The notes beneath the pieces were generated by a model. That model was given only the letters and a program-made list of their open reading frames with translations. It was not told the DNA's origin and searched no databases. From positions 25,547-89,546 of the forward strand of contig MEXN01000003.1 in assembly GCA_001773695.1 (NCBI GenBank): 64,000 bases of DNA, in the 5' to 3' direction. This DNA comes from Candidatus Amesbacteria bacterium RIFCSPLOWO2_01_FULL_48_25 (GTDB taxonomy: Bacteria; Patescibacteriota; Microgenomatia; CAZETR01; Amesbacteraceae). Both the position numbers and the translations under genes were made by a program. Shown here one piece after another: positions 1 through 59,571 of this stretch (the first letter of the stretch is position 1; every line of letters starts with the position of its first letter).

Positions 1-1477
1 TGAGGTATTTTTTACCGGTTGGCAGATTTGCCACCGTGTCTGCCATCTCGCGGTCTACAACAAATTTGATCTTGTCTAAGCCATTTATCCAATACCAATT
101 GGCATGAAAATCCCATGAAGCATGGGCTTGAAAATCGGCCGGGTCCCACGGCCAATAGAAGGCCACGAATTCATGCGGCTCACCATAGCGCTTTGTAAAA
201 ATAATTTGATCATAATCTAGATAATGATTCTTGACATAATTGACGGCTGCTTTGTAACCAAATTGCCAGCTTTGGGAATAATTGACCGGATATTTCATGA
301 GGTAATTTTCCAAATACAAATCGAGGGAAATAAAAAAGGAAATTAGGATTGCAAAAATATAAATTTTGCGGAAACGTGTTTTCAGTCGGCGCCATGACCA
401 CCATACTCCCCAAGCTGATATGAGAACCAACGGGGGAATCATTAAGTTGGACCGAATAACAGCAAACTCGTCCCGAGTAATGGCCGCAGGGAATGGAGCC
501 AGAAACAGCCAAGCCAGTAAAAGTTTGTCCGAGGGAGATGATGATTTTAATTTAAACAAAATTAGGGTTAAACCGAGATAAAAGAACACAGCTTCCGGCC
601 AGAGGAGAACGCCAAACCCCGGCAGACTGTACTGAAATTGCGTGCCACCGGAGAGAGCTAAGAATTGGGGAGAGAAATATCCCAGGAAATGGGAAGCGAA
701 TTGACTGGCTAAATAAGCCGGTCGGTTGTAAATCAGCCGGGGAAATGGAGCCGGGAGAGAAGAGGCGACTCGGGACTGCTCAATCCCGGAAATGACTCCA
801 GGGTCTAAAATCCCCACCCAATTGCCGCGAGCCAGGGATGTGGGAGAAAGAAGAATCAATTCAGAAAGACCAAGAACAGCCAGTATAAAAAATATGTGCC
901 GACGGAAATATACCAAGAGAAAGATAGCAAATAAGGGAATTAAGATACGCGCGTTGTGGTATGAGAATAAACTGAGACCTAGAAACAGAAATGATAGACG
1001 AAAACTAGATCGAAGATAAAGAGCTAAAAAAATACTCATTAAAAATAGGGCCCAGTTGGATTGGAATACGGCGCGGGAAGGAAACAATGCCCAGGGCGTA
1101 ATGGCGAAGAGGAGGGAAGCTAATAATGCAAGTTTGAAGTTTTTGCGCCAGTAATAAGCGGCGGCAAAAATTGGGATAACGCCAACCGTGCCTATCAAAG
1201 CATGAGGAAATCGTGCGGTAAAATCGGTGGGGCCGAATAAAAACACGAAAGGAACAGTAAAGTAGAGATTTATCGGGGCCGGATAGTCACCATAGGCTCG
1301 AAATGAAACTAGCGGAAGAACTTGACCCCACTGGTCCCTGCCGGTTCGTAATAAAGAATAGGCGTTGTAGGCATGGCTCACCTCATCCCAATTGAGACTG
1401 GGTGGAAATTTGTCCAGATAAACCACCCGGAGAAAAATGGCCAATATTAAAATCAGGAAGAGATAAGTTTTTTGCAT
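1..1477 (-). CDS. GT-C membrane glycosyltransferase, ArnT/PMT (GT39-like) family A. Partial: the C-terminus runs off the window start.
   Basis: Not in the ORF track because there is no stop inside the window. I translated the minus strand by hand from the ATG at 1477: MQKTYLFLILILAIFLRVVYLDKFPPSLNWDEVSHAYNAYSLLRTGRDQWGQ...FSYHNARILIPLF...KRYGEPHEFVAFYWPWDP. It stays open to position 1. The NWDE..YNAYSLL.TGRD..G and SYH.ARI motifs match the paralogs at 3021..4613 and 6063..7592. Confidence 0.7.
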   Translation of the reverse strand, partial: MQKTYLFLILILAIFLRVVYLDKFPPSLNWDEVSHAYNAYSLLRTGRDQWGQVLPLVSFRAYGDYPAPINLYFTVPFVFLFGPTDFTARFPHALIGTVGVIPIFAAAYYWRKNFKLALLASLLFAITPWALFPSRAVFQSNWALFLMSIFLALYLRSSFRLSFLFLGLSLFSYHNARILIPLFAIFLLVYFRRHIFFILAVLGLSELILLSPTSLARGNWVGILDPGVISGIEQSRVASSLPAPFPRLIYNRPAYLASQFASHFLGYFSPQFLALSGGTQFQYSLPGFGVLLWPEAVFFYLGLTLILFKLKSSSPSDKLLLAWLFLAPFPAAITRDEFAVIRSNLMIPPLVLISAWGVWWSWRRLKTRFRKIYIFAILISFFISLDLYLENYLMKYPVNYSQSWQFGYKAAVNYVKNHYLDYDQIIFTKRYGEPHEFVAFYWPWDPADFQAHASWDFHANWYWINGLDKIKFVVDREMADTVANLPTGKKYL

Positions 1478-3024
1478 ACTATTCCCAACAGGGCTGTCGC
1501 GCTAATAAGGTTACCCAAAATGCGGGGAAGGGTGTCTTTAAACTGCAGGTTGACCAAATGATCACCCTTGGGAATACGGGCGGTAACTAACCCTAGGTTC
1601 CCACTGGGAAACACAGGAATTTCCCGACCGTCGATTATTGCGGTCCAATTGGGAAAATAAACGACCGGAAAGGATATTTTGGCGTACTCCGGCTCAACTA
1701 AAATCTTATAAACCCCAGTATCCAACAATTTTGAATAACCATTGCCAATGCGAATGGTGGGAGTTGCGGGAGCAAATTTGGTTGGCAGACTGGGGGCAGA
1801 TTGGGGCCAAAAGTCTGGAAGCGCAGATGACCTCTGTTCGTCCCAGAGTGGGCCACTAAATTGTTCTTTGTCGGTAATGCTTCTCCAGATATCCGGGCGG
1901 AAAAAGGAAAAGTTGATTAAAATAACTAAGGAAACCAAGGCGATTGAGGCAATTTTGGAATAATTTTTGGGAATTAAATTTACGATGGCTCCTGAAGACA
2001 GCGATAAAAATAGAGAGGAAATGGATAAGAAGCGCCAGGGAAACTGGATAAATTTCATGGGCTGGAGATAATTCCATATTGGAGAAGACTTACCGTGGGT
2101 TAGAAAGAGGGCGAGCACGCCAAGAGCGAAAAACAAAAGAAAGTTAGTAGAAGCTTCTTTAAATTTTCTAGTGACTATGATACCGATAATAATTAGTGGT
2201 ACTATCCAATGCAGGTGACCGGCAGAAACGCTTAAGAATTTTTGGGCCCACAGAGAAGCGCCATAGCCCCAAAACCGAGAAACGAACAGCTCGCGCAGGG
2301 TAGTGAAATGGATACGATAGTTGTAATAATCTTGAGTTGTATTGGCCAGAGTAATCAGTCGGCTTTCAAAAATAACTGGCAGAAGATAGAAAGCGGACAA
2401 CAAGAGACTAAAAAGCCCGGCTGGTATAAACTTGAGGTCGCGGCTTTTATAAAGCCAGAACGCGGCCAAAAACGGCAGAAACATAAAAACCGAAAGGTTG
2501 TGAGTCAATATGAGTGCGGCTAGAGATAGAGAAAATAACAAGTACTTTTTTCGATCAACTAATAGCAGAACGATGGGAAAGAGAACAAAAGAAAGAGCTT
2601 CCGGAAGAGCACCACGAACCCAAACATCGACTGAGCGATAAGGGGCGTAAATATAAAATATGGCCGATATTATGCCCCCGAAACTACCCCAATAAGTTCT
2701 TGCGAATATAAACATGGTAAATGCGGAAAGAACGAGGGATAAAATGAAGAGTAGCTTTACCGTATCAATAATCTGAAAACCAAGGGAATGGATAATTTCG
2801 CCTATCCAGTAAGGGAGCTGGCCATAATAATTGAAAACCGGTTCACCATAACCCAAACCCGCGTCAGGAGCCCAGCGGCAGGGAAAAGTTTTGGCCCGAA
2901 TGCATTTGTCAAACTCATATTGGCGAAATACATGGAAATCGTGCATGGTGTAAATTCCGGGCCGAAGCATAAGAGAAAATGAGGGGAAAGATAGTAGAAG
3001 TAACAAGAGTAGGGTTTTCCTCAT
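1453..3024 (-). CDS. Polytopic membrane protein of the MHD...GYG(Y/E)P family (putative GT-C-type transferase; possibly PF10131/YfhO-like)
   Basis: 523 aa with many TM helices. N-terminal motif MHDFHVFRQYEFDKC...PCRWAPDAGLGYGEPVFNYYGQLPY is shared with the paralog at 26111..27778. The 4-nt ATGA start overlaps the stop of the upstream gene. Confidence 0.55.
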   Translation of the reverse strand: MRKTLLLLLLLSFPSFSLMLRPGIYTMHDFHVFRQYEFDKCIRAKTFPCRWAPDAGLGYGEPVFNYYGQLPYWIGEIIHSLGFQIIDTVKLLFILSLVLSAFTMFIFARTYWGSFGGIISAIFYIYAPYRSVDVWVRGALPEALSFVLFPIVLLLVDRKKYLLFSLSLAALILTHNLSVFMFLPFLAAFWLYKSRDLKFIPAGLFSLLLSAFYLLPVIFESRLITLANTTQDYYNYRIHFTTLRELFVSRFWGYGASLWAQKFLSVSAGHLHWIVPLIIIGIIVTRKFKEASTNFLLFFALGVLALFLTHGKSSPIWNYLQPMKFIQFPWRFLSISSLFLSLSSGAIVNLIPKNYSKIASIALVSLVILINFSFFRPDIWRSITDKEQFSGPLWDEQRSSALPDFWPQSAPSLPTKFAPATPTIRIGNGYSKLLDTGVYKILVEPEYAKISFPVVYFPNWTAIIDGREIPVFPSGNLGLVTARIPKGDHLVNLQFKDTLPRILGNLISATALLGIVCKKLISS

Positions 3025-4613
3025 GGCGTTTTTTCGGCGATTTTTATAGCCGGTGTTCCGTTGGGGTAGTCCACATGGAAGTATTCGGGGTAATTTTCTG
3101 GAAACTGAGAAGGGGGGCCGATAAATAAAGTAGGGCGAGTAACAGGCTCAGAAAACTTGAGGTCTCCAAATCTAAATTTGCCTAAATAGTAGCCGTCCAA
3201 TTGATCTAGAAAGCGAAGTCCTTTGGCTTCAAAATCCAACCAGGCCGTTGACTCCTTTTGATACTCCTTTGGCGGATAGGCTGAATAAAAAGCGAGAAAA
3301 ATGTGCGACTCGGAGAAAATGCGGCTGACTCTAACGTCTGTAAATCTGTCGGAAATAGGTAAGCCTCGGGAAATGGCTTGGCGCCAACCGTATGACATGG
3401 CTGGTCCGTTAACCGAGGGGGCCAAGTAAATATAACGAAAGCCAAAATATGCTAAAGATACTAAATAAGCACCTGCGATAAAAAAAATGATTTTTTTGCG
3501 AGACCATATTTGCACAAATCCAATGGCTGCAGCCAAGACAAAAAACGGGGTCATGATGGCGGCGCGATTGGCGGCAAAGCCGGAGCTCTTGGATAGGGCT
3601 GCCGGAACGGGGGCTAGACCCAATAAAAGAATTAACAATAGCTGTGACCGAGTGGGCCGGCGGATAAATTGGGTCAGGAATACCCCCAACAACGGCAACT
3701 CGATTAGATAAAGGAGCCCGAGGCCCGGAAGCATGCCGTAAGTAGCCTCGGCTGGACCGGTAGCAAAAAGCGACGAAGGAGAAAAGTAAACCAAGTAGTT
3801 GTGAACGAACTGGGATAGGACGTTGGTCGCTTTGTTGGAAAATGTGCGGGCGACAAAATCCGGAAGCCCAAGGTTTCTGGCCACGAAACGATCCGTGGCC
3901 ACACTATGCCAGTTGTCCGTAGGACTTAGAATACTTACGTCCGCTACCCGCGGACCGAAAAAAGACCACAGGCCCGGGATAAATAACAGAAGCAGGATGG
4001 GGAAAGACTTGTGAGCCGTCAGGCGGACGGGTTTGTACCACCAGAGAAGGGCCAATATAACCGGGGTGAGTATTCGAGCGGAATGGTAGGAATAGAAGGA
4101 TAGTGCGAAGTACAAAGTACTAAGGGCTAAGCGCTGGGACAGAAAGAGATAAATGGCCAGGGGAATAAAAAGGGTGGCCAAATTAGCTTCAAAGGCGCCA
4201 CGGGAGAGCTGGATGTGCCATGGCGAAATCGCAAGGATAAACGAAGCCAGTAGAGGGAATAGCTCTCCCCTCATGAATTTTCGAGCCAGCAAATATATTG
4301 CTGCTATAGCCAAAGATCCAAATATTGCGTTGGGGAGGCGGGTGGCAAATTCGGTTAGGCCGAAGATTTTGACCGTGGGCACGGCCAAATAGGCATAGAG
4401 GGGTAACTTATAGTCACCAAAGGAACGCAAGTTGATAAAAAATAGTTCGTACCAAGGCTGGCCCCATTCGTCCCGGCCGGTAAGAAGTAATGAATAAGCA
4501 TTGTAGCCAAACGCGGCCTCATCCGGGGTAAACCCAGCGGGATAGTTGGATAAGCCAAAGACACGTATAAGTAATCCCAAAACGCAGATACACACCAACA
4601 CTACTTTTCTCAC
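3021..4613 (-). CDS. GT-C membrane glycosyltransferase, ArnT/PMT-like family A
   Basis: 530 aa. N-terminal TM helix then TPDEAAFGYNAYSLLLTGRDEWGQPW (the DE loop motif of ArnT/PMT_2 enzymes), FYSYHSARI, and many TM helices. Confidence 0.75.
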   Translation of the reverse strand: MRKVVLVCICVLGLLIRVFGLSNYPAGFTPDEAAFGYNAYSLLLTGRDEWGQPWYELFFINLRSFGDYKLPLYAYLAVPTVKIFGLTEFATRLPNAIFGSLAIAAIYLLARKFMRGELFPLLASFILAISPWHIQLSRGAFEANLATLFIPLAIYLFLSQRLALSTLYFALSFYSYHSARILTPVILALLWWYKPVRLTAHKSFPILLLLFIPGLWSFFGPRVADVSILSPTDNWHSVATDRFVARNLGLPDFVARTFSNKATNVLSQFVHNYLVYFSPSSLFATGPAEATYGMLPGLGLLYLIELPLLGVFLTQFIRRPTRSQLLLILLLGLAPVPAALSKSSGFAANRAAIMTPFFVLAAAIGFVQIWSRKKIIFFIAGAYLVSLAYFGFRYIYLAPSVNGPAMSYGWRQAISRGLPISDRFTDVRVSRIFSESHIFLAFYSAYPPKEYQKESTAWLDFEAKGLRFLDQLDGYYLGKFRFGDLKFSEPVTRPTLFIGPPSQFPENYPEYFHVDYPNGTPAIKIAEKTP

Positions 4614-4641: not shown

Positions 4642-6078
4642 ATGGCCAAGTTTTTAAAATATATAGTTTGGGGAGGGGTACTAGTCAGGATCGGTTTATC
4701 TCTCTTGGTTCCGTTAGACGTGTCTGTACTCCAGGCTAAACTATTTTATCCCGACCCAAATGACCCATTTGTGGTGAGCCGGGTGTTGGTGAGAGGATGG
4801 GGAAAAATAACGGGGACAGGAACATATCAGACGGCTGGAATGGGTTTAATTATATTTTTGACATTGGTTTACTTAGTTTATAAGTCGATAAGTCACAAAA
4901 TCCCAGAGTCCCCCACTTGGTTGGTGGTGTTGGCTGCCATCTTTAATCCCTGGTTAAATTATTTGGCAGTTTTCCACTGGCAAGAAAGTTTGAGCTTGAT
5001 TTTTGCACTAATGTTTTGGCTGGACAAGGATAATTTTCGGCGGATGGCGTGGGTAATACTTCTGAGTCTGTCCTCTGCCAGTGGATTTGTTTTAGGGTTG
5101 GGTGTTTTGTTACTTTGGATACTTAGACAGCCAAAAATATTAAATCTGGTTCCGGTCCTTATTGTCCTTCTCTGGTTTGGGAGCAGATGGGATTTATTGG
5201 GGCCTTATTTTGAATCCAGCCCGATAAAAGAGCTGACACCGAAATACTTGGGAGGGCAGGTTGACGAGATTCAGAAAAATATATTTTTGGGATCGCAAAA
5301 AAAAATTATATATCCGGCAATTATAAGAAAGATCGTTTTTAATAAAGTAGTTTTGGGTGTTGATAAACTTCTGGGTAACGCTATAGGAGTCGTGGACTTT
5401 ACCCAATGGACGGCACCAGTGTCTGCCATGTCTGTTACCCGATTGTCCGGATTGCCCCCAAAGGGAATATTTACCCAAATGTATTATTGGGAATTGCCGA
5501 TATTAATTTACGGCGCTTGGTCGGCATGGAAAGAGAAGGAGCGGAAAATGTGGTGGGTTGTCTTTTTGGCCATAATACCTGCTTTATTTTGGGAAAAAAG
5601 GTGGTTCTACTTATCCGCATATGGTCTGATCCCTATTTTTGTGTGGTTGACAATGCGAGCAGTAACCCGAATGCCCTGGAAGGTAATATTCGTGGTTGGC
5701 GGGTTATATTGTGTGAGCGGGTTTTATTTTTGGAAACAGTTTTATTTCAACCCGGTTTCATATAGATCCAGTGATGTTTATTTGTATAAACAAATCAACC
5801 TGTGGGTCAGGAAAAATCAAGATAGATATCAAAAAATTATGATTACTAATATGTTTGGGCCGGCGGATTTTATGAACTTGTTTTACGGGGGAATCGACAA
5901 AACCAAAATGGCGTATGGAGAATTTGACCTACGAAAAAATGAGCCCGTTTCCGGTATGGTATATATCGGACTGCCGGGACAGTTTAAACCCGAACATTCA
6001 AACAGAGATATCGAAGTTATTAATTCCGAAGATGAACTTGTTTACAGATACGGGAAAGGATTATGGGTACTAAAGTAA
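4642..6078 (+). CDS. Polytopic membrane protein, function unknown (GT-C-like context)
   Basis: 478 aa, hydrophobic throughout with a soluble C-terminal segment. One of the few plus-strand genes. Its end overlaps the start of 6063..7592 by 16 nt. Confidence 0.45.
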   Translation: MAKFLKYIVWGGVLVRIGLSLLVPLDVSVLQAKLFYPDPNDPFVVSRVLVRGWGKITGTGTYQTAGMGLIIFLTLVYLVYKSISHKIPESPTWLVVLAAIFNPWLNYLAVFHWQESLSLIFALMFWLDKDNFRRMAWVILLSLSSASGFVLGLGVLLLWILRQPKILNLVPVLIVLLWFGSRWDLLGPYFESSPIKELTPKYLGGQVDEIQKNIFLGSQKKIIYPAIIRKIVFNKVVLGVDKLLGNAIGVVDFTQWTAPVSAMSVTRLSGLPPKGIFTQMYYWELPILIYGAWSAWKEKERKMWWVVFLAIIPALFWEKRWFYLSAYGLIPIFVWLTMRAVTRMPWKVIFVVGGLYCVSGFYFWKQFYFNPVSYRSSDVYLYKQINLWVRKNQDRYQKIMITNMFGPADFMNLFYGGIDKTKMAYGEFDLRKNEPVSGMVYIGLPGQFKPEHSNRDIEVINSEDELVYRYGKGLWVLK

Positions 6079-7592
6079 AATATTTAATTTGGATTTTGCC
6101 GGTAATACTAGCTGTGTTTGCCAGGTTTAGTTTTGCAGCTTTTTCACCGCCGTCTGTTAATTGGGACGAAGCGGCTTTTGGATACAACGCGTATAGCCTA
6201 CTTCTGACCGGAAAAGATGAGTATGGTTATAAATTGCCTCTGGCCTTTAGATCATTTGACGAATATAAACCGCCTCTATATGTTTACCTTTCGGTGCCGT
6301 TTATAAAGTTTATGGGGCTAAATGACATAAGTGTCCGGATGGTTTCTAGGGTGAGCGGGATCTTTGGTGTTATATTGATTATGGTCGTCGCTACACTGAT
6401 AACTCGAAACTGGATGGTCGGGCTCATTGGGGGTTTTCTAGCAGCGGTTGAGCCGTGGGTTCTTATGTTTTCCCGGATGGGGGTCGAGGCGACCTTGTCC
6501 TTGACGTTATTTTTGATTTGTCTGGCTTGGTTAATAAAAGCGGAAAAACAAAGTAGGTATTATTACTGGGCATTAGTTACGGCTGGAATAAATACTCTGG
6601 CGTACCACTCGGCTAAGGTGTATTTCGGCATAATCGCGGTCTACGTTCTGACTAGAGTCGGGCGGGATACTAAAAAACTTATTAGAACGGGTGCGGTTAT
6701 TTTGTTGGCTGGCGGCCCTATGATTTGGGGTCTGTTTACCGGATCGACACTAGCTCGGTTTAATTACACCAGTATCTTAACTTTGGCCAAAGATCGGCCA
6801 ATGTTCGTTTTTGTAGGCGAGGTGGTGAACAGATATTTTTCGTATTTCAATCCGACAAATCTATTTGTGAGGGGGAGTAATGAAACGGGACAGAAATTAG
6901 AAGGTTTTGCACCCTACATGAAAATAGAATTTGTCTTCTGGATTGTGGGTTTATGCATCGTAATTTCTGACAAGAAGCTTTCGCTTTTAAAAAAATGGCT
7001 GCTTGTGGGAGCGATACCGGCGATGATTACCTGGAGCTGGTTTTCGCTGGTGCGGATATTGCCACTATTGGCCGCTTTTACCATAGTTATCGCCATAGGC
7101 ATGACAAAACTTCTTAAGAAACGGGTCTTGGGGGTACTCTTCGTGGGTTTTTTAGTAATCAATACGGTATGGGTGTTGTCCAGCGTGTGGTTTACCACAC
7201 CTTATTTTCAATACGGGGATTGGCAGTGGGGATTTAGAGAAGTGGTGGAAGTGATCAAGCCGATTGAAAAGGACTATGACTGGATAGTGTGGGAGTCGCC
7301 CCATGCCCAACCGCATATTTTGACACTGTTTTACTGGAACTACCCGCCTAATCAATATCACAAAGACATCGTGTCCCCCGAGTCTATACCCTCACCTAGA
7401 CTAAGTTTTGATTTTGGAAAGTTCAGATTCCGAAAAATTTATTGGCCGGAAGACAGAGGCTTGAAGAAAGTCTTATTTGTAGGCGGAGTTTATTCATTAC
7501 CGGAGTCCGACCTGGCTCGGGATCAGGTAAAGATAATTAAAGACATTATCGACCCGCAAGGGTATGTATCTTTCCGGATTGCAGGAACTTGA
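6063..7592 (+). CDS. GT-C membrane glycosyltransferase, ArnT/PMT-like family A
   Basis: 509 aa. SVNWDEAAFGYNAYSLLLTGKDEYGYKLPL, AYHSAKVYF. Paralog of 3021..4613 and 1..1477. Confidence 0.75.
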   Translation: MGTKVKYLIWILPVILAVFARFSFAAFSPPSVNWDEAAFGYNAYSLLLTGKDEYGYKLPLAFRSFDEYKPPLYVYLSVPFIKFMGLNDISVRMVSRVSGIFGVILIMVVATLITRNWMVGLIGGFLAAVEPWVLMFSRMGVEATLSLTLFLICLAWLIKAEKQSRYYYWALVTAGINTLAYHSAKVYFGIIAVYVLTRVGRDTKKLIRTGAVILLAGGPMIWGLFTGSTLARFNYTSILTLAKDRPMFVFVGEVVNRYFSYFNPTNLFVRGSNETGQKLEGFAPYMKIEFVFWIVGLCIVISDKKLSLLKKWLLVGAIPAMITWSWFSLVRILPLLAAFTIVIAIGMTKLLKKRVLGVLFVGFLVINTVWVLSSVWFTTPYFQYGDWQWGFREVVEVIKPIEKDYDWIVWESPHAQPHILTLFYWNYPPNQYHKDIVSPESIPSPRLSFDFGKFRFRKIYWPEDRGLKKVLFVGGVYSLPESDLARDQVKIIKDIIDPQGYVSFRIAGT

Positions 7593-44720: not shown

Positions 44721-44739
44721 TGACCCTATTATGAAGAAT

Positions 44740-46114: not shown

Positions 46115-46131
46115 CTTATGATGAGCAGGAG

Positions 46132-51608: not shown

Positions 51609-52276
51609 TTGATTGCGACCAGGGTAACTATACATGGGTATCTGACATCTGTAATCTCCAGATCCGCGATATTTACGTCTTGTTGGGACATGCCTACCCA
51701 AAAGTACTGGCCGGCTAGGACGTTGCCGTAAGTTTTTATATCTATGTTTTTTGACCTGAAATACTTTCCGAATATGTATTTGACAGAATAAGGAGTGAAA
51801 CGCCAATAGACTTTTTCTTTTAAGATCGGTCCCAGACAGGATGAGGTAAAAAGCAAGACTCCTCCCGGCTTGAGGATGCGATGGCATTCACATGCGGCCG
51901 CCTGGACATCGTCAATTAGACCCAAGACGTGAGTCAGAATAAGGCAATCGTAAGTATTGGATTTTACGGTAGTTAAATGCTTGAGGTCGCCATGAATAGT
52001 GGCGAGTTTATTTTTTGGATTGATGTCTAGCACGTCACTTTTAGTAACTTTTAAGCCAAATTTGATAGTATAAAATGAATCAGTGACTTCAAGGCATCTG
52101 CCAGTTATAAGTTTTTTATTAGCTGTGAGAAATTTTTCGATCCAATACCTATCTATTGGGTTTCCCCGATCGAAGCCAAATTTGTGGCTTAACGGCTTGG
52201 CGCTTGGCCTGGCTAACCAATATAGTCCGGCTGGGCGGAAAAGACGCATGATAAGAGCACGAATTTTTGAAATCAT
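51605..52276 (-). CDS. Class I SAM-dependent methyltransferase
   Basis: 223 aa. CLEVTDSFY...VLDINP...YDCLILTHVLGLIDD...LKPGGVLLF. Confidence 0.55.
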   Translation of the reverse strand: MISKIRALIMRLFRPAGLYWLARPSAKPLSHKFGFDRGNPIDRYWIEKFLTANKKLITGRCLEVTDSFYTIKFGLKVTKSDVLDINPKNKLATIHGDLKHLTTVKSNTYDCLILTHVLGLIDDVQAAACECHRILKPGGVLLFTSSCLGPILKEKVYWRFTPYSVKYIFGKYFRSKNIDIKTYGNVLAGQYFWVGMSQQDVNIADLEITDVRYPCIVTLVAIK

Positions 52277-53934
52277 TTTGTTAAACTCTTGGAACTAACC
52301 ACCATGTCCCAACGACTACTGACATTTGTTTGAGGGAGTAACTGCGATCTCAAAAAGGTAAATGAGACTAGCATTAAGTATAGAACGGCATAAATGGGAG
52401 ATTTAATAAATTCCCAAAATCCGGAAAAGAAATAAAGATACCACGGAGGATTGAAGTTGTTGTTCGTTATTTTTCGTCCGGAATTAAAGTAGCGCCAACT
52501 TTGTTTCCAGTGATCGGCCAGGGTTTTTGGTAAACGGTAGTAGATTCTAGTACTGGAAACAAATGTGTACTTAAAACCATGCAACTTGGCAAAAACATAA
52601 GTAAATTTGTCCTCCCCCCCCGAGTTGGGAAAATGAATGGCTTTGGCCAGACGCCGTGATAGGGCCCTAACTGGGCCGTGGCAAGACAGCGCGTTGTCAC
52701 CACCATTGAATGACTCGAAAACCCGGTTTTTTCCAGCCATGCCAACACTTAGAGTTTTCTCTAGCCAATTGGTGGGGGGAAGATGACGAATCGGGCAGGA
52801 AACCAGATCGGCTGATTCATTTACGAAGGGACGGGTAATTTGGGAAAGAAAGAAGGGATCGAAAACTCTGATATCGGCGTCCATTAATAGTGTCACATCG
52901 GAATCGGATCGAGAAAGCAAAACATTGTTGGCGTGGGTCCGACCGTGGCGCTTTTGGGAAGAGATTAAGTCTATCCGAGGATCAGAAAATCCGCGAACTA
53001 TTTTGTCCGTGTCGTCCGTGCTACCATCCGAATAGACTAGAATTTTTTGTAATTTGTAATGGGGGGAAGGGAAATGATTGAGTAAGTCATCGAGAAATTT
53101 AGCAATGTTTTGGGATTCGTTGTGAGCCGGAACTGTGACGGTTACTGATAGTTGTTTAACTGGAGAAGAATGATAAAAAGATTCCAATTTGGGGATATTT
53201 GATAAATTGCCTTTGAATATTGCTTTGACCTGTGAGGTATATTGGGATATCGAATTGATTTTCTGTGAATGATTTAAAGAGACGACCAATTTTTTAGGAT
53301 TTAGAAGTTGAACAAATTTGGGATCAACTGAAAATTTGAATATATAAGGAAAATCTTCCCAGTAATAAACATTTGTAAATGTTTGGGCGCATAAGTCGCG
53401 GACGATCACATGATCTACGTGATTACCCACTGCCATTGGGCAAAAAATCAAAGAACTAGGAGCGTTAATAATATTTAATAGCCTTTTTCTTACTTGAATT
53501 AGAGTCTCCAAATCTTTTTCGGAAACTTGTCCACGAGAAATATGCCATCTATAAGTTGGGTAGATTTTTTCACGCCACAGAGCATCGGTGAATCCCAAAT
53601 TAACTACTTTGACATGCGGGAAGAAGGAAAAGGCCCGTTTGTCTTCTTGTATGCGGACTTTTTGCAGCACGATTGGATCTTTAAAACCACTCTGGCGAAG
53701 GAATGCGAGTTGAGATAACGATTGAGGCCCGGCGTGTGTTTTAGTGAAGATGTTTATGACAGTTACCGGAACTTTATCAGAGAGATATGAGATTAGTCCC
53801 CCGGCTGAAAATAATGCATCGTCGAGATGGGGGGAAATAAAATAGACAGGAGTGTTGTTTTTGATGATATTTTTGATTGTCTTGGTCATACTGGACTGAG
53901 AGAAATTCCCTTCTTTAGCAAGTTGGTGTACCAA
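52273..53934 (-). CDS. Bifunctional fusion: N-terminal PIG-L/LmbE-family de-N-acetylase plus C-terminal family 2 glycosyltransferase
   Basis: 553 aa. The N-terminal VYFISPHLDDALFSAGGLISYL...MAVGNHVDHVIV is a PIG-L signature. The C-terminal VTVTVPAHNESQNI...ILVYSDGSTDDT...LLMDADIRV is GT2. Contains a G8 tract encoding SGGE. Confidence 0.65.
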   Translation of the reverse strand: MVHQLAKEGNFSQSSMTKTIKNIIKNNTPVYFISPHLDDALFSAGGLISYLSDKVPVTVINIFTKTHAGPQSLSQLAFLRQSGFKDPIVLQKVRIQEDKRAFSFFPHVKVVNLGFTDALWREKIYPTYRWHISRGQVSEKDLETLIQVRKRLLNIINAPSSLIFCPMAVGNHVDHVIVRDLCAQTFTNVYYWEDFPYIFKFSVDPKFVQLLNPKKLVVSLNHSQKINSISQYTSQVKAIFKGNLSNIPKLESFYHSSPVKQLSVTVTVPAHNESQNIAKFLDDLLNHFPSPHYKLQKILVYSDGSTDDTDKIVRGFSDPRIDLISSQKRHGRTHANNVLLSRSDSDVTLLMDADIRVFDPFFLSQITRPFVNESADLVSCPIRHLPPTNWLEKTLSVGMAGKNRVFESFNGGDNALSCHGPVRALSRRLAKAIHFPNSGGEDKFTYVFAKLHGFKYTFVSSTRIYYRLPKTLADHWKQSWRYFNSGRKITNNNFNPPWYLYFFSGFWEFIKSPIYAVLYLMLVSFTFLRSQLLPQTNVSSRWDMVVSSKSLTK

Positions 53935-54875
53935 ATGACGTTTTCGCGGGGAGCGTTCCAGGTGAGGTTGTGAATCTCACAGTTGATCATGAGACTACTG
54001 ACCCTCTTGGTGTAATTGGGGTCTTTTTTAGATTTGGCTGAAATACGAGAAAAAAGTCTGTTTCTCAGACCGTGGCTGATACCCATAGTAGAAATAGAGG
54101 TGACAGTTTCAAACTCCGGATACGTATAAGAGACTTGTTCCACATCGAGGATATGGATCTTTTTACCGCGGAGATAGATATTTCTGAAATTCAGATCACC
54201 ATGAACAAGCGTGGATTGATAATAACCTGTGAAAGCCGAAATGTTTTTGACAAATACCCAAATACCGCGAAGAATATCCAAGAATAAATTGGGGTGCTCG
54301 AAAATTGCGGCGATGGTGATTAGGGGCAGTATGCATAAATATTCCCCGATGAGTTTATGGCGGAACTGGGATACTTCAAGTCTGGTCATGTGGCGACCCA
54401 AAAATCTTAAATAGCCAACTACTTGATTGTGTATTTGGATCTGACGACGTGAATCATGGACTTTCGCCAGTGGTTTACCCAAAATAAATTTTGTTCCTAA
54501 AATTAATTTATGTTTTTCGTGGCGGGAGAAAGCCACGTTAGGTATGGAAAGTGCTTTGTACTTTGGTGGGAGAATATGGGCGACCCGGTCGTGGACATTG
54601 TTTAAGATTTGGATTGAGGTAAGCTGATGAAGCAGGTCATAATAATGGATGTCTTTTCTCTTGCCAGTCCAAATCTTCATAACAACCCGCAACCCTAACG
54701 GGTCTTGATATAGGCCCACTTTGAATGGAAAATGTTTTTCCGGTTGCAAATCACGAATTAACTTGAAGCGATCAATATGTTGGGGCATCTGCCTGGGAAC
54801 GTCCCGAAACCTTTTTTCGAATAGGCTGTTGTATAAATAACTAAAAATGATATTGACAAGCTTACTGATATTCAT
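53886..54875 (-). CDS. Protein-kinase-like fold phosphotransferase (APH/ChoK/Kdo-kinase-like)
   Basis: 329 aa. Catalytic-loop-like LVHGDLNFRNIYL (HGDxxxxN), then IHILDVEQVSY, which is DxE/DFG-like. Confidence 0.5.
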   Translation of the reverse strand: MNISKLVNIIFSYLYNSLFEKRFRDVPRQMPQHIDRFKLIRDLQPEKHFPFKVGLYQDPLGLRVVMKIWTGKRKDIHYYDLLHQLTSIQILNNVHDRVAHILPPKYKALSIPNVAFSRHEKHKLILGTKFILGKPLAKVHDSRRQIQIHNQVVGYLRFLGRHMTRLEVSQFRHKLIGEYLCILPLITIAAIFEHPNLFLDILRGIWVFVKNISAFTGYYQSTLVHGDLNFRNIYLRGKKIHILDVEQVSYTYPEFETVTSISTMGISHGLRNRLFSRISAKSKKDPNYTKRVSSLMINCEIHNLTWNAPRENVIWYTNLLKKGISLSPV

Positions 54876-57800
54876 ATGCTGGTTGATGGCTTAGGGGAAC
54901 ATCAATTTCGGGAACTAGGAGAAGTTTGACTGCCTCTAAAAAAGACCGTGATTGTGATTCCCAGGAGAATTGGCGAGACCAGGCTTGAGAATTTTTGGAA
55001 AAATATTTGAGGATCGAGGGGCGGTGAATCAGGGATTTAATCGTATTTGCCAAGGTATATGGATCAAGGGGGGGAACCAGGATACCGGTTTGGTTGTGGC
55101 GAACCGAATCGCGAAGACCAATTACATCCGAGGCGATGGCGGGAGTGCCACAAGCGTTGGCTTCGATGACGGTAATCCCCCACCCTTCGAACGAACTGGG
55201 CTGAAGCATGGCCCAAGATTGGGACAACAACTGGACTTTTTCTTTCTCCGTCACCCGGCCGAGAAAATAAACATTATTACTTAAGTTTAAATCTTCGGCG
55301 AGGTGCCGCAATTCTTTTATCCCCTCACCGACTCCGGCAATGTTCAGCCGGGCTTTGGGATGATCACGAACCACTTGAGAGAAAGCCCGAATAGCCACGT
55401 CTATATTTTTGTACGGGCGGATCCGGCCCACATAAACAAACGATGGATTTTTTGTTTTTGGCGCTTTGCGGATGTACTCCCTAAGAGTAATCCCGGGATT
55501 AACTATGGTGATATCTTCCGGACGGCTTAAACCGATGCGGACGATGTCGTTTTTGGAGGATTCGGAGACAGTAATAATCTTTTGGTTATGGTAGACAAGG
55601 GGCATGAGACGGGATTCCAAAGCCATGGCAAACTGAGCCACGGGAAAGGGCAGACGGCCCTGGAAAATTATTTTATCCTGATGGATGTGATGGATGAGGA
55701 GAATTTTGGGAATACGGGCGAATAGTGGAGTAAAAAATGGGATACCGTTTTCAGAGTCGATAACAATGTCAAATCGGTTCCGAAGACGCAACAAATAATA
55801 TATTACAGCCCAGAAATAGACTGTGTAAAAACCGCCATGGCGAATGATTTTCACTCCGTCGATTGTTTCCTTGCGGGGACAATTGCCGTCATTGCCGCAA
55901 AAAATGGTGACCGTATGGCCCTGGGCAGCCCAACGCTTGCCAAGCTCGTGAATATAGACCTCGGCGCCGCCGGCCCATTTATGGCGGATGTCCCGCCAGT
56001 TGAAAATTAGAATCCGGAGAGAATCCGATTTGGATGGGGAAAGTTCGCGAGGAAAAAAGCGGATCAATAAATCCCATAGATCCCTGATGTTGTTGGTCAC
56101 CGACCAGGAAAACTGGTAATAGAAATGGAGCATGAGAAAACTGCCCAGGTAAACTAAACTTAAAACCAGCATGACAGTGACTAAATCCGCAAGACTTGAA
56201 TGGAAAAAGTAGACTAAAACCGGTTGGAGGGAAGCTAAAATGAAGCCTAAAATGGGAAAGACATATTGGCGACGGGCTTGGTGATAATTGACGATACTAC
56301 CAGACAGGGTGAAGTTGACCATGGCCAGGCAGTACCAGGTTAACAAGGGGATGACGGAAATGATCTTCGGGCCGAAAAGAAGAGGAGCGAAAATTGACCC
56401 CAATGGCCCCAAAGCGACAAAGCCCATGATACTGGTAACGCTATTGCCCAGCAACAGGCGGTAAAACAGCGGCTTGGGATTGGCACCTTCCCCCTCGGCC
56501 CGACTGACTACGGGGATGATGAATGGATCAAATAAAGAGCCTAGAAAATAAACAATTTTACCGGCTAACGATATCAGAACATATTGACCGGCGATAGCGG
56601 GAGGTAAATAGATTTTGGCTAAGATTACGTCCAAACTCAAAAACGCCAGAGATGAAAGCTTGATAAGAATCGAGGTGCTAAAAAACCGAAAGGGGAAATG
56701 GGGTGCTGATTGCAGGGTCTTTGTGGCAACTATTTGGGGTTTGATAGCTCTGACTGCCAACCAACAGACTGCGAGAGCGGCGACTAATGAGAGAGGGTGA
56801 GAAGCGTATATATATTGGGGCCAACCCAAGCGGACAAAAAAGACGGCGAAAGCAAACTTGGATACAGATTCGACAGTGACCATAGCAGCAAGTACCGCAA
56901 ACCGGTGATGGCCAGCTAGGAATCCCCGATTCGTGGCCACTAAGGCAGTCGCTAACCATAACGGGGTGATAAGGAAAAACGGAGTCGTATTGCCGTTTGC
57001 TTGGAAAACCCGGGACATCCACGGAATGACCGCGATCCAGACGGCTGTCACTCCTAGCGAAATATACAAAACCCGACTTTTGATAAAGTTCCAAAAGTGG
57101 TTTACATAACGGTTCTTTTGACCCAAAAGAAATGCTACCCGGTGCGAGAGAGTTTTGGAGAGAGCGGTGGTAGGGATTTGCACCAAATAGGCAATACTAC
57201 CCATTAGGCCCACCAGACTGAATTCTTCTATGGAAATGGCCCGACCCAAATATATGTTGTAGAGAAAATTGAAAAAATTGCTGAGCATGGTAGAGGCTAC
57301 CAGAAGCGTGCCTCCCTTAAGTAAGGGTTGGGGTAGAACTCCCAGCCGTCCAAATTGATGAGAAACAAAGTTCCTCAGGCTTGAGAGCCAGGACTGACGG
57401 GCTTCTTTGGAAACTTCGAACAAATGGAGACCGTGGTGGGTTTTTTCCCAGTAATAGGGACGGAATACCAACTGCCAGAATGCCTTGAAAGCTGCTAGGC
57501 TTATAAACAGCCAGTAGAGGGGGACGGCAAATACGTATTTGACCAATTCCCACCGGCCGCGTTTGGCACAGCCAATCATGTAGTAATAGAGGTAGAGAAA
57601 ATTGCCGAAAATAGCGGAGAAGGCAGCCAGATAAAAGATGGCGGCGGGATAGAGGGACTCGATAGTGGGTCCGACATATTTATAAAGAGCAAAATAAGAA
57701 ATTGTCGCCAGCCACAAGAAGGGGTTAATAAGCATAAATGCGATCCGGCCGCCGACGATAAGCTGAAAAATTAGAGCGTGCCAACCGTGGGACTTTAAAA

Positions 57801-59571
57801 ACCTTAAGGGATGGCGATTATGAACAAAAAAGGTTTGCAGGTAGCCCTTGATCCAGCGGGAGCGCTGACGTAACCAGTTACCAAGATCGCTGTTGGCTTC
57901 CTCCAGAGTTGTGGAGTCAATAATGGCGGTGGTGTAGCCTTCTTTAAACAGTCTGGCGCCCAGATCGCAGTCCTCAGTAACATTGAAGGCGTCCCAGCCG
58001 TGGAGACTTTTTAAAATGGTGGTTCGGAAATGATTTGAAGTCCCGCCTAATGGAATAGTGGTCCCCAGTGACTGAAGGCCGGGGAGGACAACGTCGAACC
58101 AGAGGGAATACTCGGTAGTGAATAATCGGGTCAAAAGGTTGTGGTGGGGATTGTAGTAATTGAGTTTGGCTTGGAGGCACGCGGTTTGGGGAGGGACGCG
58201 GTGAGTAAAAGTGAAATACGCCTTTTTGAGTTGGTCCGGCTCGGGACGGTCCTCCGCATCATAGATGACGATGTATTCTCCTGTGGCCCGGGATAGGCCA
58301 TAATTGCAGGCTTTGGGTTTGGTCTTGGGATTCGAATGAGGGACAACGACGACGTGGAAGTAGTCCGGGAGAGCCAAGTTTTTAGCTGCTTCCCGCGTTT
58401 GGTGATCGTCTTCTTCCAGAAGCAGAAGAACTTCCAGTTTATCTTTGGGCCAGTCCAGCTGAGAAATGTTTTCTACAAACTGAGGCAGGACCCGGGCCTC
58501 GTGATAGAGGGGGCAAAGAATCGTGTAAACAGGGAGTTTATCAGTTGCCCAGTTTTGCAGTTGAGCCACTGAAATGGAGATTTCAGGGGGTGACTTGAGA
58601 CTTCTGTAAATTAAAATGAAGTTGAAAACAACGTCGGCAAAATAAATGGCTGAGAGCAGGCCAACAAGAGTGATGGCTGTAGACTGCGGCCAGAGGAGAA
58701 AGCTGACGGACATTAGAGCGAGAGCGCCCAGAAGAGCTAGTTTTTGAAGTCGATGTAGGGTCACTATGGCGGAGTAGTGATGCGGCAGGGTGGAGTGAGT
58801 AACATAGCCGCGACGACGGTAGATCATACCGGCTCCGGCCATTGAACTGTTTGAGGCTGGTGGCAGGGAATAGATTTTTCCGGGCGAAAATCGCAATCTT
58901 ATGGCGGTGGTACTAATTTCTCTGGCGGCTTGAAAAAATTCTGACCGGGCTTGAGATGATCCGGACTCCCTGGGTGTAAAGGTGATGGGAACGACCCCTA
59001 TTGAGTAACCCAATTCACGGGCTGTATGCAGAAGCGGCATGTCTATCGCCCATGCTCTGACGTCACTTTCGGATAGATGGACGGCAACTTCCCGCCGGAA
59101 AAGTTTTAACCCCGATTGGACATCGCAGTTCAGCCCCAGAAGTAGTCGGCCAAAGATAAAGGTGTTTAGGTGGGAACCAATTTTACGTAACAGTGAGGAA
59201 TGGGACTTGGTCCGGTTGGCGACCACGACACCATGGACGGCAAGCTGGGGATACATCTGAGGGATGGCTTCAGGAGGATATTCCAAGTCCCCGTCAATCA
59301 TGGCCATAAAAGGAGCGGAACTTGCACGAATGCCTTCGATAATGGAAAAGGCCTTCCCACGCATCCCTCTTTTCACAACCAATCTTATGGGGTACTTTTG
59401 GGAAAGTCGGGTGATAAGTTCGCGGGTGTCATCTGTAGAGTGGTCGTCGACAAAAATTATTGAGTATGGAATCTTGGCTTTTTGCAGGCTGGAATTTATG
59501 CGGCGGGTAAGTTCAACTAGACTGGCCTCTTCGTTATAGACGGGGACGATGATATCTAATCTTCTGGACAT
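54862..59571 (-). CDS. Giant multidomain glycosyltransferase (1569 aa): GT2 (DPM1-like), TM helices, processive GT2 (QxxRW), TM bundle with MOP/Wzx-like domain, then GT4
   Basis: A single uninterrupted ORF. Residues 1-230 are DPM1-like (IIVPVYNEEASL..IIFVDDHSTDDT..AMIDGDLEYPP). About 340-620 is synthase-like GT2 (YDAEDRPEPDQL...TEDCDLGARL...QRSRWIKGYLQ). The central region has more than 15 TM helices and includes GRAISIEEFSLVGLMGSIAYL, which is a Wzx-like loop. The C-terminal ~400 aa is GT4 (ILIFNWRDIRHKWAGGAEVYIHEL...QPSSFEGWGITVIEANACGTPAIASD). Confidence 0.75.
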   Translation of the reverse strand: MSRRLDIIVPVYNEEASLVELTRRINSSLQKAKIPYSIIFVDDHSTDDTRELITRLSQKYPIRLVVKRGMRGKAFSIIEGIRASSAPFMAMIDGDLEYPPEAIPQMYPQLAVHGVVVANRTKSHSSLLRKIGSHLNTFIFGRLLLGLNCDVQSGLKLFRREVAVHLSESDVRAWAIDMPLLHTARELGYSIGVVPITFTPRESGSSQARSEFFQAAREISTTAIRLRFSPGKIYSLPPASNSSMAGAGMIYRRRGYVTHSTLPHHYSAIVTLHRLQKLALLGALALMSVSFLLWPQSTAITLVGLLSAIYFADVVFNFILIYRSLKSPPEISISVAQLQNWATDKLPVYTILCPLYHEARVLPQFVENISQLDWPKDKLEVLLLLEEDDHQTREAAKNLALPDYFHVVVVPHSNPKTKPKACNYGLSRATGEYIVIYDAEDRPEPDQLKKAYFTFTHRVPPQTACLQAKLNYYNPHHNLLTRLFTTEYSLWFDVVLPGLQSLGTTIPLGGTSNHFRTTILKSLHGWDAFNVTEDCDLGARLFKEGYTTAIIDSTTLEEANSDLGNWLRQRSRWIKGYLQTFFVHNRHPLRFLKSHGWHALIFQLIVGGRIAFMLINPFLWLATISYFALYKYVGPTIESLYPAAIFYLAAFSAIFGNFLYLYYYMIGCAKRGRWELVKYVFAVPLYWLFISLAAFKAFWQLVFRPYYWEKTHHGLHLFEVSKEARQSWLSSLRNFVSHQFGRLGVLPQPLLKGGTLLVASTMLSNFFNFLYNIYLGRAISIEEFSLVGLMGSIAYLVQIPTTALSKTLSHRVAFLLGQKNRYVNHFWNFIKSRVLYISLGVTAVWIAVIPWMSRVFQANGNTTPFFLITPLWLATALVATNRGFLAGHHRFAVLAAMVTVESVSKFAFAVFFVRLGWPQYIYASHPLSLVAALAVCWLAVRAIKPQIVATKTLQSAPHFPFRFFSTSILIKLSSLAFLSLDVILAKIYLPPAIAGQYVLISLAGKIVYFLGSLFDPFIIPVVSRAEGEGANPKPLFYRLLLGNSVTSIMGFVALGPLGSIFAPLLFGPKIISVIPLLTWYCLAMVNFTLSGSIVNYHQARRQYVFPILGFILASLQPVLVYFFHSSLADLVTVMLVLSLVYLGSFLMLHFYYQFSWSVTNNIRDLWDLLIRFFPRELSPSKSDSLRILIFNWRDIRHKWAGGAEVYIHELGKRWAAQGHTVTIFCGNDGNCPRKETIDGVKIIRHGGFYTVYFWAVIYYLLRLRNRFDIVIDSENGIPFFTPLFARIPKILLIHHIHQDKIIFQGRLPFPVAQFAMALESRLMPLVYHNQKIITVSESSKNDIVRIGLSRPEDITIVNPGITLREYIRKAPKTKNPSFVYVGRIRPYKNIDVAIRAFSQVVRDHPKARLNIAGVGEGIKELRHLAEDLNLSNNVYFLGRVTEKEKVQLLSQSWAMLQPSSFEGWGITVIEANACGTPAIASDVIGLRDSVRHNQTGILVPPLDPYTLANTIKSLIHRPSILKYFSKNSQAWSRQFSWESQSRSFLEAVKLLLVPEIDVPLSHQPAYEYQ

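Follow-up and report, generated by a model that had tools for sequence, protein, structure and literature searches.

Does the long run of glycosyltransferase genes on contig MEXN01000003.1 of Candidatus Amesbacteria bacterium RIFCSPLOWO2_01_FULL_48_25 encode many separate decorations of the cell surface, or the ordered assembly of an envelope glycan? We analyzed this locus in a 64,000-nt stretch of the contig (the window, to which all coordinates below refer). The first-pass annotation, which covered positions 1-59571, had described it as a single envelope-glycosylation super-cluster. Instead, the locus is a composite of three modules that are conserved separately and lie side by side here: a core of GT-C membrane glycosyltransferases with a Wzx flippase, the rml genes, and a giant-synthase module found throughout the candidate phyla radiation (CPR). 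We consider it fairly probable that this composite locus, which extends over at least 70 kb, directs the ordered assembly of an envelope glycan outside the membrane from lipid-linked sugar donors.

Gene Content and Extent of the Locus

The window contains 55 open reading frames (ORFs) of at least 150 aa, and the curated map comprises 51 genes up to position 59,571 (named from o00 onward and located on the minus strand unless marked +). Families were assigned by Pfam and NCBIfam scans over all ORFs, paralogy was established by all-against-all BLAST, and gene order was compared with the neighbourhoods of three o20 homologs (50-55% identical) from other Patescibacteria genomes (L026, L028, and L029). 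The minus strand carries 88% of the coding bases, and overlaps of a few bases between neighbouring genes are frequent. The left end of the window truncates the cluster. Contig L030, which represents the same organism, adds 10 kb leftward with the complete o00 gene, two PMT_2 paralogs, a PIG-V-like gene, an o20 paralog, a sixth DPM1-like gene, one GT2 gene, and one GT4 gene; because this extension brings more glycosylation genes, the locus reaches a length of at least 70 kb and a total of about 24 GT-C genes.

The host is a member of the Microgenomates group of Patescibacteria/CPR, and not a classical Gram-positive bacterium. The o20 protein is 100% identical to the hypothetical protein A2634_05015 of Candidatus Amesbacteria bacterium RIFCSPHIGHO2_01_FULL_48_32, and unchanged copies of the RmlB and o01 proteins are encoded on metagenome contigs from the Rifle aquifer. 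Three such contigs, which originate from different samples, are 99.8-100% identical to the window across 14-21 kb.

GT-C Membrane Glycosyltransferases

Enzymes of the GT-C type occupy approximately 47-49% of the region (28.0 kb, or 29.1 kb including o30, of 59.9 kb summed gene length). By a combination of paralogy, Pfam, profile-profile comparison, and structure we identified 19 GT-C genes and a probable further one (o30) in the window; the previous estimate of about twelve was thus too low. The PMT_2 group is the largest with 11 members (o00, which is partial, o02, o03, o04, o08, o13, o19, o23, o26, o27, and o28), followed by a GT87-like trio (o06, o07, and o14), the PTPS_related-like pair o01 and o22, and the remaining genes o20, o44, and o45. 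All-against-all BLAST grouped the membrane proteins into ten PMT_2 proteins, the GT87-like trio, and the pair with weak PTPS_related matches, most paralog pairs being 22-39% identical. The profile of aligned PMT_2 paralogs (alignment A1, with o23 as lead sequence) has ArnT (5ezm, E = 1.6e-7 over 360 positions) as its sole significant match in PDB, and the loop-1 aspartate is present in 9 of the 10 aligned proteins, the exception being o03, where VLQ replaces the DE motif. Comparisons by hhalign link the other families to this profile: the GT87-like trio (profile A2; Prob 95.8%, E = 7e-9, 305 columns), the o22 family (A7; Prob 96%, E = 4e-9), and the o45 family (A8; Prob 96%, E = 2.6e-9, 328 columns). 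The non-PMT_2 families share an invariant acidic residue after the first transmembrane (TM) segment, which is the invariant Asp25 in A2. The multi-TM fold and acidic outer-loop motif of GT-C enzymes are therefore both found, and, with the predicted folds of o20 and o44 described below, the membrane proteins with DE motifs turned out to be GT-C enzymes as first suggested. PDB sequence searches with the profiles of the GT87-like trio, the o22 pair, the o20 family, and the o44 family gave no match, and relaxing the Pfam threshold to E up to 10 for the membrane proteins left unassigned yielded noise only.

Within the PMT_2 group, o00 (1..1477) has an open frame that runs off the left end (492 aa visible, 523 aa in full in L030), an NWDE loop-1 motif, and 32% identity to o02 (E = 7e-54). 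Two members, o02 (3021..4613; PDEAA loop-1 motif) and o23 (27775..29277), exceed the cutoffs of both PF13231 (30.7 and 45.7 bits, respectively) and PF02366 (24.7 and 30.6 bits); both have the DE motif, and no PMT_4TMC match was reported for them by Pfam. Clear PF13231 matches were also obtained for o04 (6063..7592, +; E = 6.7e-9, WDEAA motif), o19 (21702..23129, +; E = 4e-11, TDEGV motif), and, in the o26-o27-o28 block (30748..35108), for o27 and o28 (E = 3e-10), o26 being assigned via BLAST; all three genes of this block have orthologs in L026, L028, and L029. The PF13231 score of o08 (10659..12251; 30% identical to o02, orthologs in L028 and L029) is just under the cutoff at 24.8 bits. The o13 protein (15471..17027; YDQAR motif) is 28% identical to o27 over 519 aa and has orthologs in L026 and L028 with 37-48% identity. 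Finally, o03 (4642..6078, +) has a weak BLAST link to o02 and no Pfam match; from its altered loop-1 motif it may be inactive, either as a non-catalytic partner or as a decaying copy.

In the GT87-like trio, o06 (8219..9415) passes the PF09594 cutoff (30.1 vs. 25 bits), o07 (9412..10662; a 416-aa gene call in L030) has a BLAST link to o14, and o14 (16987..18129) combines a weak PF09594 match with 30% identity to o06 and an ortholog in L026 (57% identity). The o22 protein (26111..27778) has a PF10131 match below the cutoff (E = 8e-5) and orthologs in L026, L028, and L029 with 41-63% identity; its family member o01 (1453..3024) is 39% identical to it and also matches PF10131 below the cutoff (E = 7e-4). 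The PIG-V/AZOBR_p60025-like membrane protein o30 (35816..36859, +) matches the NCBIfam model 'cell surface glycopolymer formation protein' below the cutoff (E = 2.6e-11). As the o30 paralog in L030 scores above the cutoff of Pfam PIG-V (27.7 vs. 22.4 bits), o30 is a probable further GT-C member.

Two GT-C Families Recognized by Predicted Structure

The membrane proteins o20 (23126..24715) and o44 (47361..48932), of 520-530 aa, have no match in the family libraries; each has more than 1300 homologs, and none of these carries a Pfam domain. AlphaFold2 models built on 37-sequence alignments indicate that both families adopt the GT-C fold. The top structural matches include ALG12, ALG9, ALG3, STT3B, and AglB at 7-15% sequence identity, along with AftA, AftB, AftD, and PimE. 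Comparison of single sequences of o20, o44, o45, and o30 with the PMT_2 profile by hhalign gave nothing useful, family alignments being needed; for the o44 family alignment the comparison was still non-significant (Prob 20%), so that its GT-C assignment, for a protein without detectable sequence relatives among known families, is decided by the predicted structure alone.

The o20 family, an undescribed one with 1527 cluster representatives in a library of 1.84 billion proteins, has a GT-C TM core and a C-terminal globular domain, as an oligosaccharyltransferase has. Neither the consensus nor the invariant columns of the family alignment (37 sequences) contain the WWDxG motif, which defines STT3, PglB, and AglB, and ArnT and AftA match the o20 model equally well or better than the oligosaccharyltransferases do. 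In all four genomes examined o20 adjoins the Wzx gene. Many relatives (among them P0243, P0246, P0250, P0253, P0260, and P0264) are 1000-1160 aa long and carry an extra N-terminal secreted domain of approximately 450-590 aa, which has a weak DUF3863 similarity, no Pfam match, and no counterpart encoded in the window.

Donor Synthases, Flippases, and Gene Fusions

Five DPM1/GtrB/ArnC-like domains form one subfamily: o24, o25, o29, the GT2 part of o32, and residues 1-210 of o50. In PDB, the structures that match their joint profile (A6) in full length are Pyrococcus DPMS (1.7e-44), three entries for ArnC (about 1e-36), and GtrB (1e-32); matches to the other GT2 structures are confined to the N-terminal part, at E-values of 4e-24 or weaker. 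Judged by these profile matches, the five domains are polyprenyl-phosphate-sugar synthases of the DPMS/ArnC/GtrB type. The adjacent genes o24 and o25 (29278..30751) encode soluble synthases with full-length PF00535 matches and ArnC and PgfS as top NCBIfam models. The o29 gene (35090..35782), which overlaps o28 by 19 nt, has ArnC as its top NCBIfam match (E = 2e-24); the ArnC-model scores of the donor synthases are 46-86 bits vs. a cutoff of 529. In o32 (37319..38563; 414-aa gene call), the GT2 domain (PF00535, E = 7e-28) is fused to a GtrA flippase-type domain (PF04138, E = 2e-12, 47.6 bits vs. a cutoff of 26.1). Five synthases with one GtrA fusion is exactly what the first-pass annotation had listed. 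The Wzx/MOP flippase, also correctly recognized, is o21 (24693..26177; Polysacc_synt_3 PF13440, E = 1e-45, 156 bits; NCBIfam MOP flippase, E = 4.5e-35).

Gene fusions in related genomes link these components. Among the 120 closest homologs of o28, 90 are GT2::PMT_2 fusions of 650-745 aa, and for every one of these o29 is the best match of the GT2 half; the two halves are encoded by separate genes in the window genome and its two nearest relatives. The protein P0284 (1639 aa) joins Wzx, a soluble domain, and an o20-family domain, its Wzx part being 45% identical to o21. Both kinds of fusion point to functional coupling of their parts.

Conserved Gene Order and Modularity

The order o27-o26-o25-o23-o22-Wzx-o20-o18-o17-o16-o15-(o14)-o13-o12-o10-o08 is kept in L026, L028, and L029. 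Each core gene is 35-70% identical to one window paralog, and the next-best window paralog reaches about 36% at most, mostly 33% or less. This gap shows that the paralogs are old and that each has been retained for a role of its own; a recent lineage-specific duplication of the core paralogs was rejected because one-to-one orthologs exist, and such a duplication is possible for the o00/o02/o04/o08 subfamily. Conserved one-to-one orthologs in conserved order favour an ordered assembly line over optional decorations, so that the many distinct sugar decorations suggested at first appear less likely.

The three modules recur independently of each other. The block from o50 to o40 is found in at least ten CPR loci; a PMT_2-group gene lies nearby in only one of them (L021), and the GT-C/Wzx core in none. 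Conversely, the core recurs without o50 in L026, L028, and L029, and the rml genes are not beside the core in any of these three. In the window the rml genes adjoin trmD; in L011 they lie beside a homolog of the giant synthase.

Cytoplasmic Glycosyltransferases and rml Genes

In addition to the donor synthases, the window encodes seven further GT2 and two GT4 proteins. The GT2 genes o09 (+), o10, and o12 lie together with the S-adenosylmethionine-dependent methyltransferase gene o11 at 12272..15514 (PF00535, E = 1e-21 to 1e-27; PF08241); orthologs of o10 and o12 are present in L028 and L029. By Pfam, o15 (GT4, start codon uncertain) and o16, o17, and o18 (GT2) at 18126..21760 form a putative cytoplasmic glycan-assembly block, which stands in the same order beside the o20 ortholog in L028 and L029, two genes intervening in L026. 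The best NCBIfam match of o10 is a 'rhamnosyltransferase' subfamily, below the cutoff, with o09 and o17 close behind. WbbL-like rhamnosyltransferases had been proposed among these genes: the GT2 proteins do match TIGR01556, but all at 35-75 bits, far under the cutoff of 200.55.

The rmlD, rmlC, rmlB, and rmlA genes (o35-o38; 39860..42977) are all present in order and pass the Pfam cutoffs. The dTDP-rhamnose pathway had been called complete, which holds at the equivalog level for RmlB (425.8 vs. an NCBIfam cutoff of 365.1), whereas RmlA (217 vs. 360.65), RmlC (35 vs. 155.75), and RmlD (87 vs. 224) pass Pfam cutoffs only, the rml models being nonetheless their best matches. RmlC is very divergent and also matches FdtA. 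A dTDP-6-deoxyhexose is the safe call for the product, and L-rhamnose is its likely identity.

The Giant-Synthase Module

The third module (43.8-59.6 kb) is built around o50 (54862..59571), a 1569-aa fusion of four domains: a DPMS-like GT2 domain (residues 1-210), a BcsA/PgaC-like GT2 domain (349-629), a Wzx-like TM domain (approximately 750-1140), and a GT4 domain (1201-1530). Residues 2-211 match DPMS (2.5e-18) and ArnC (2e-14) in PDB, and residues 347-624 match BcsA (9fmv, 1.7e-12) and PF13632 (E = 6e-25). The QRSRW motif at residue 569 and the predicted TM segments near positions 275, 297, 597, 637, and 676 are those of a processive GT2 synthase. For the third domain, hhalign of residues 764-946 with the Wzx family gave Prob 71%, and the Pfam Polysacc_synt match (E = 8e-5) is below the cutoff. 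In a genome-collection scan, full-length homologs with 43-70% identity were found in at least 14 Patescibacteria metagenome-assembled genomes (MAGs), of which another Amesbacteria MAG has the 70% homolog and MAGs labelled Gottesmanbacteria, WWE3, Microgenomates, Parcubacteria, and 'Saccharibacteria' have homologs of 43-55%. The genes that recur around them encode the kinase-like protein, GT2, methyltransferase, GT4, o45, o44, o43, the fn3 protein, the sortase, and the CAP-domain protein.

Two GT-C enzymes belong to this module. Across CPR, most giant-synthase loci carry an o44 homolog of 60-65% identity, and o45 (48919..50442) is LA_3751/LA_3752-like (NCBIfam E = 5e-16, below the cutoff). Between o45 and o50 lie a GT4 gene (o46), a methyltransferase gene (o47), a PIG-L deacetylase::GT2 fusion (o48), and a kinase-like gene (o49) at 50439..54875, assigned by Pfam and co-conserved with the giant synthase in CPR loci. 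The two methyltransferases (o11 and o47) and the deacetylase fusion had been placed at about the right positions before. The kinase label of o49 is based on a weak RIO1 match (E = 4e-4) and an HGDLNFRN motif. On the other side, Pfam assigns a CAP-domain membrane protein (o40), a sortase (o41), an fn3 protein (o42), and a secreted CarboxypepD_reg protein (o43) at 43833..47361; o42 ends with a LASTG sorting signal, a TM segment, and RRPK, and o40-o43 are co-conserved with the giant synthase in L006, L016, L017, and L018. PDB sequence searches with o43 and o49 gave no match, leaving the notion that o43 is the glycoside hydrolase of the system unsupported.

Homologs of the synthase part of o50 occur in Firmicutes. 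MAGs of Lachnospiraceae (L023:8485-10773) and Desulfotomaculaceae (L025:3554-5785) encode MshEN::GT2 synthases that share 44% identity with the o50 middle domain; the MshEN domain, which binds cyclic di-GMP (c-di-GMP), replaces the DPMS-like domain, and beside each of the two genes lies one for a membrane protein distantly similar to o44. The gene immediately downstream of the giant synthase, o51 (59747..60511), encodes a secreted protein that has a linker rich in Pro and Thr (PSPTPTSIPPTSAPAPTSTPKPPTSTPKPTPTPTPLP) and a TM segment at the C terminus and is a plausible O-glycosylation substrate.

Proposed Pathway and Alternative Interpretations

The combination of donor synthases, flippases, and GT-C enzymes acting at the outer face, as in Gtr/Arn-type systems, had been proposed for this region and is well supported at the level of families. 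The observed protein folds, families and motifs, gene order and its conservation, and fusions fit the following scheme, which we favour with measured confidence. In the core, o09, o10, o12, and o15-o18 together with the methyltransferase would build a lipid-linked glycan at the inner membrane face, which Wzx (o21) would move to the outer face. There, o20 would act on the flipped product, either in the first outside step or by transfer of the glycan to an acceptor. The o24, o25, o29, and o32 proteins would charge polyprenyl phosphate with single sugars, the GtrA domain of o32 assisting in donor flipping, and the remaining 15 confirmed GT-C enzymes would each add one defined sugar outside the membrane. 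The rmlA-D genes would supply the dTDP-6-deoxyhexose, probably L-rhamnose, to the cytoplasmic GT2 enzymes. In the third module, o50 would polymerize and export a glycan through its QxxRW synthase domain while its DPMS-like domain would make a lipid-linked sugar for attachment outside by o44 and o45, and the GT4, methyltransferase, PIG-L::GT2, and kinase-like proteins may modify the product. As the acceptor we would guess a heteroglycan bound to the wall or the membrane, possibly with surface proteins in addition.

Several points weigh against this scheme. No initiating phosphoglycosyltransferase of the WecA/WbaP type, Wzy, WaaL, or LCP ligase was found in the window and the 10-kb left extension, so that the start and the end of the pathway are missing there. 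The conserved gene order could also fit several separate glycans, and the sugars, the acceptor, and the order of steps in this organism are inferred from genes. The o24, o25, and o29 synthases have no predicted TM helix to bring them to the membrane; o03 lacks the catalytic Asp; the assignments of o01, o08, o14, o22, o30, o45, RmlA, RmlC, and RmlD are below curated cutoffs; and the Wzx-like nature of the o50 TM domain is proposed with moderate confidence.

The closest competitor is protein glycosylation as in the endoplasmic reticulum (ER), where a lipid-linked oligosaccharide flipped by Wzx and extended outside by many GT-C enzymes from polyprenyl-phosphate sugars (cf. ALG3/9/12/6/8/10) would be moved as a whole by o20 to proteins of the surface, for example sortase substrates, pilins, or those of an S-layer. 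Consistent with it are the position of o20 beside Wzx in the four genomes examined and their fusion in P0284, the sortase, its LASTG-bearing candidate substrate o42 and the Pro/Thr-rich secreted protein o51 in the window, and the Pfam PMT scores of o02 and o23 above the cutoff. The conserved residues of the o20 family, however, do not include WWDxG, and o20 is matched at least as well by ArnT and AftA, whose acceptors are lipids or glycans, as by oligosaccharyltransferases. C-terminal domains like that of o20 occur in GT-C enzymes other than oligosaccharyltransferases too. We therefore consider this explanation unlikely, if worth keeping in view. In a broader and slightly less likely version, CPR bacteria would have a bacterial counterpart of the ER lipid-linked-oligosaccharide pathway: a cytoplasmic start, a flip by Wzx, stepwise extension outside by a dozen or more GT-C enzymes that use polyprenyl-phosphate sugars, some fused to their own donor synthase, and en bloc transfer by the o20 family to surface proteins or the wall.

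A rhamnose cell-wall polysaccharide of the streptococcal type (gac/rgp/scc), in which polyrhamnose made from dTDP-rhamnose bears side chains added by GtrB and GT-C enzymes, had been among the models put forward for this region. The rmlA-D genes with an equivalog-level RmlB, the rhamnosyltransferase-like best match of o10 (o09 and o17 being near), and the resemblance of GacI-like donor synthases, Wzx, and PMT_2-type GT-C enzymes to GacI/K/L would agree with it. Against this, there is no RgpC/D-type (Wzm/Wzt) ABC exporter in the window or the left extension, FtsE/FtsX being the sole ABC pair of the window, and no LCP ligase or teichoic-acid gene in the window; no rhamnosyltransferase match reaches the cutoff (35-75 vs. 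200 bits), RmlC is very divergent and also matches FdtA, known loci have one or two side-chain enzymes vs. 19-20 GT-C enzymes here, and the rml genes are away from the core in L026, L028, and L029. With defining parts of that system missing, the streptococcal model is improbable for this locus. Least credible, in our judgement, is a toolbox of alternative decorations, whose interchangeable or variably used paralogs would diversify the surface in a serotype-like manner for evasion of phages or hosts. Many paralogs of one fold, most pairs of low identity (22-39%), and a variable 24-bp tandem repeat inside the locus might be expected of such a toolbox, and Gtr and Listeria transmembrane glycosylation enzymes do produce serotypes (PMC8035078). 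Yet one-to-one orthologs keep their order in genomes whose proteins are 35-70% identical, Rifle contigs from different samples are nearly invariant over 14-21 kb, and 5-6 donor synthases face 20-24 GT-C enzymes.

Comparison with Known Glycosylation Systems

In the scheme of multi-component transmembrane glycosylation, a GT-A enzyme makes the C55-P-sugar, GtrA or Wzx flips it, and a GT-C enzyme, in many cases one with a PMT_2 domain, uses it outside (PMC8035078). The window encodes the same three functions as CsbB/YfhO, GtlA/GtlB, GacI/J/K/L, CsdAB/CD/EF, and the O-antigen systems GtrA/GtrB/Gtr(type), since synthases, flippases, and GT-C enzymes were each identified at the sequence level. The lack of a TM helix in o24, o25, and o29 is the situation described for GacI/GacJ, where a soluble GT-A enzyme likewise has no TM segment of its own (PMC8035078). 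However, the known systems consist of one to three scattered pairs per genome that decorate an existing polymer, whereas here 5-6 synthases and 20-24 GT-C enzymes share one locus; further differences from the Gram-positive and Gtr systems are the order conserved across genomes and the GT2::PMT_2 and Wzx::GT-C fusions in relatives.

In overall logic the proposed assembly line resembles the mycobacterial synthesis of arabinogalactan and lipoarabinomannan (LAM) or the eukaryotic and archaeal ALG pathway. The mycobacterial arabinogalactan, LAM, and phosphatidylinositol mannoside (PIM) pathways (Ppm1, decaprenylphosphoryl arabinose (DPA); AftA-D, EmbA-C, PimE, MptA-C; WbbL, rmlA-D) likewise employ many GT-C enzymes, including GT87, and extend glycans outside with polyprenyl-phosphate sugars after a cytoplasmic start that needs dTDP-rhamnose. 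Unlike in mycobacteria, the genes belong to another lineage with no mycolate envelope and are clustered rather than dispersed, identity is at the fold or clan level, and neither arabinose-donor pathway genes nor Emb-type C-terminal carbohydrate-binding modules were found in the locus. With the ALG/oligosaccharyltransferase (OST) pathway (DPM1/ALG5, Rft1-like flip, ALG3/9/12/6/8/10, STT3/AglB), the proposed scheme shares the order of events from cytoplasmic glycosyltransferases through the flip to GT-C steps; DPMS is the best match of the window donor synthases, and ALG12, ALG9, ALG3, STT3B, and AglB are structural matches. The differences are the absence of WWDxG from o20 and the low sequence identity (7-15%).

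The middle domain of o50 shares QxxRW and flanking TM helices with BcsA, PgaC, HAS, NodC, and the MshEN-GT2 synthases; in contrast to the latter, the CPR protein has no c-di-GMP module, and DPMS-like, Wzx-like TM, and GT4 domains are fused instead. The ArnC/ArnT pathway provides top matches for the donor synthases (ArnC) and the PMT_2 profile (ArnT), but the ArnC scores are far under the cutoff and Pfam and NCBIfam scans of the window detected none of ArnA, ArnB, ArnD, ArnE, and ArnF; the locus is thus not assigned to that pathway. Lipid A synthesis is not known from CPR bacteria.

Novelty and Significance

The enzyme classes of the locus and their three-function logic are already known. What appears to be new is the scale (about 24 GT-C genes, the genome probably being one of about 1 Mb), the conservation of order across Patescibacteria, two GT-C families that escape sequence-based annotation (o20 and o44), the GT2::GT-C and Wzx::GT-C fusions, and the four-domain synthase. 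Our literature searches found no paper that describes CPR GT-C clusters, these fusions or families, or the o50 architecture. A 2019 survey of CPR protein families reported sortase to be near-universal in Microgenomates and noted that, of the families enriched in this group, many consist of membrane proteins without annotation (PMC6744442).

At 70 kb or more, the locus would take up approximately 7-9% of a genome of 0.8-1 Mb (the chromosome record of one relative has 810,692 bp), and this share devoted to glycosylation outside the membrane points to a surface glycan that is central to these organisms. CPR/Patescibacteria constitute a large share of bacterial diversity; they have genomes of about 1 Mb and live attached to host cells, and their envelope chemistry is essentially uncharted. 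If the ER-counterpart reading were true, the locus would represent a conserved core of the CPR envelope, possibly of host-cell attachment. To our knowledge it is among the densest collections of GT-C paralogs, and this set offers a natural test bed for specificity determinants. Experimental handles are the o20 and o44 families, the self-supplying GT2::GT-C fusion, which would allow a one-protein assay, the Wzx::GT-C fusion, and the conserved 1569-aa synthase.

Flanking Genes and Other Sequence Features

The trmD, LigT, and HAD hydrolase genes (Pfam) are housekeeping genes inside the originally annotated range with no link to glycosylation. A predicted 92-aa membrane protein without a family match, called as a gene on metagenome contigs, is encoded at 43543..43821 in the interval between the LigT and CAP-domain genes. 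No tRNA genes or Rfam family matches were found in the window. The right flank (60528..64000, minus strand) carries housekeeping and cell-division genes that encode an M23/PcsB-like peptidase, FtsX, and FtsE; a release-factor-like ORF, which has a GGQ motif, is cut by the right end of the window.

In positions 1-59571, genes on the plus strand have a third-codon-position GC skew of +0.32 and genes on the minus strand one of -0.30 (read on the coding strand), so that the plus strand is G-rich irrespective of gene direction. The 88% of coding bases on the minus strand thus lie on the C-rich strand and would be oriented head-on to replication if the skew stems from replication. A small ORF at 36863..37306 (minus strand) encoding (SVPAIINQ)n contains a perfect 24-bp tandem repeat of 6.9 copies (37068..37233). 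Six full copies are present in the window, four in contig L001, and one in L002; since the contigs are otherwise 99.8-100% identical, the copy number of this repeat varies within the population.

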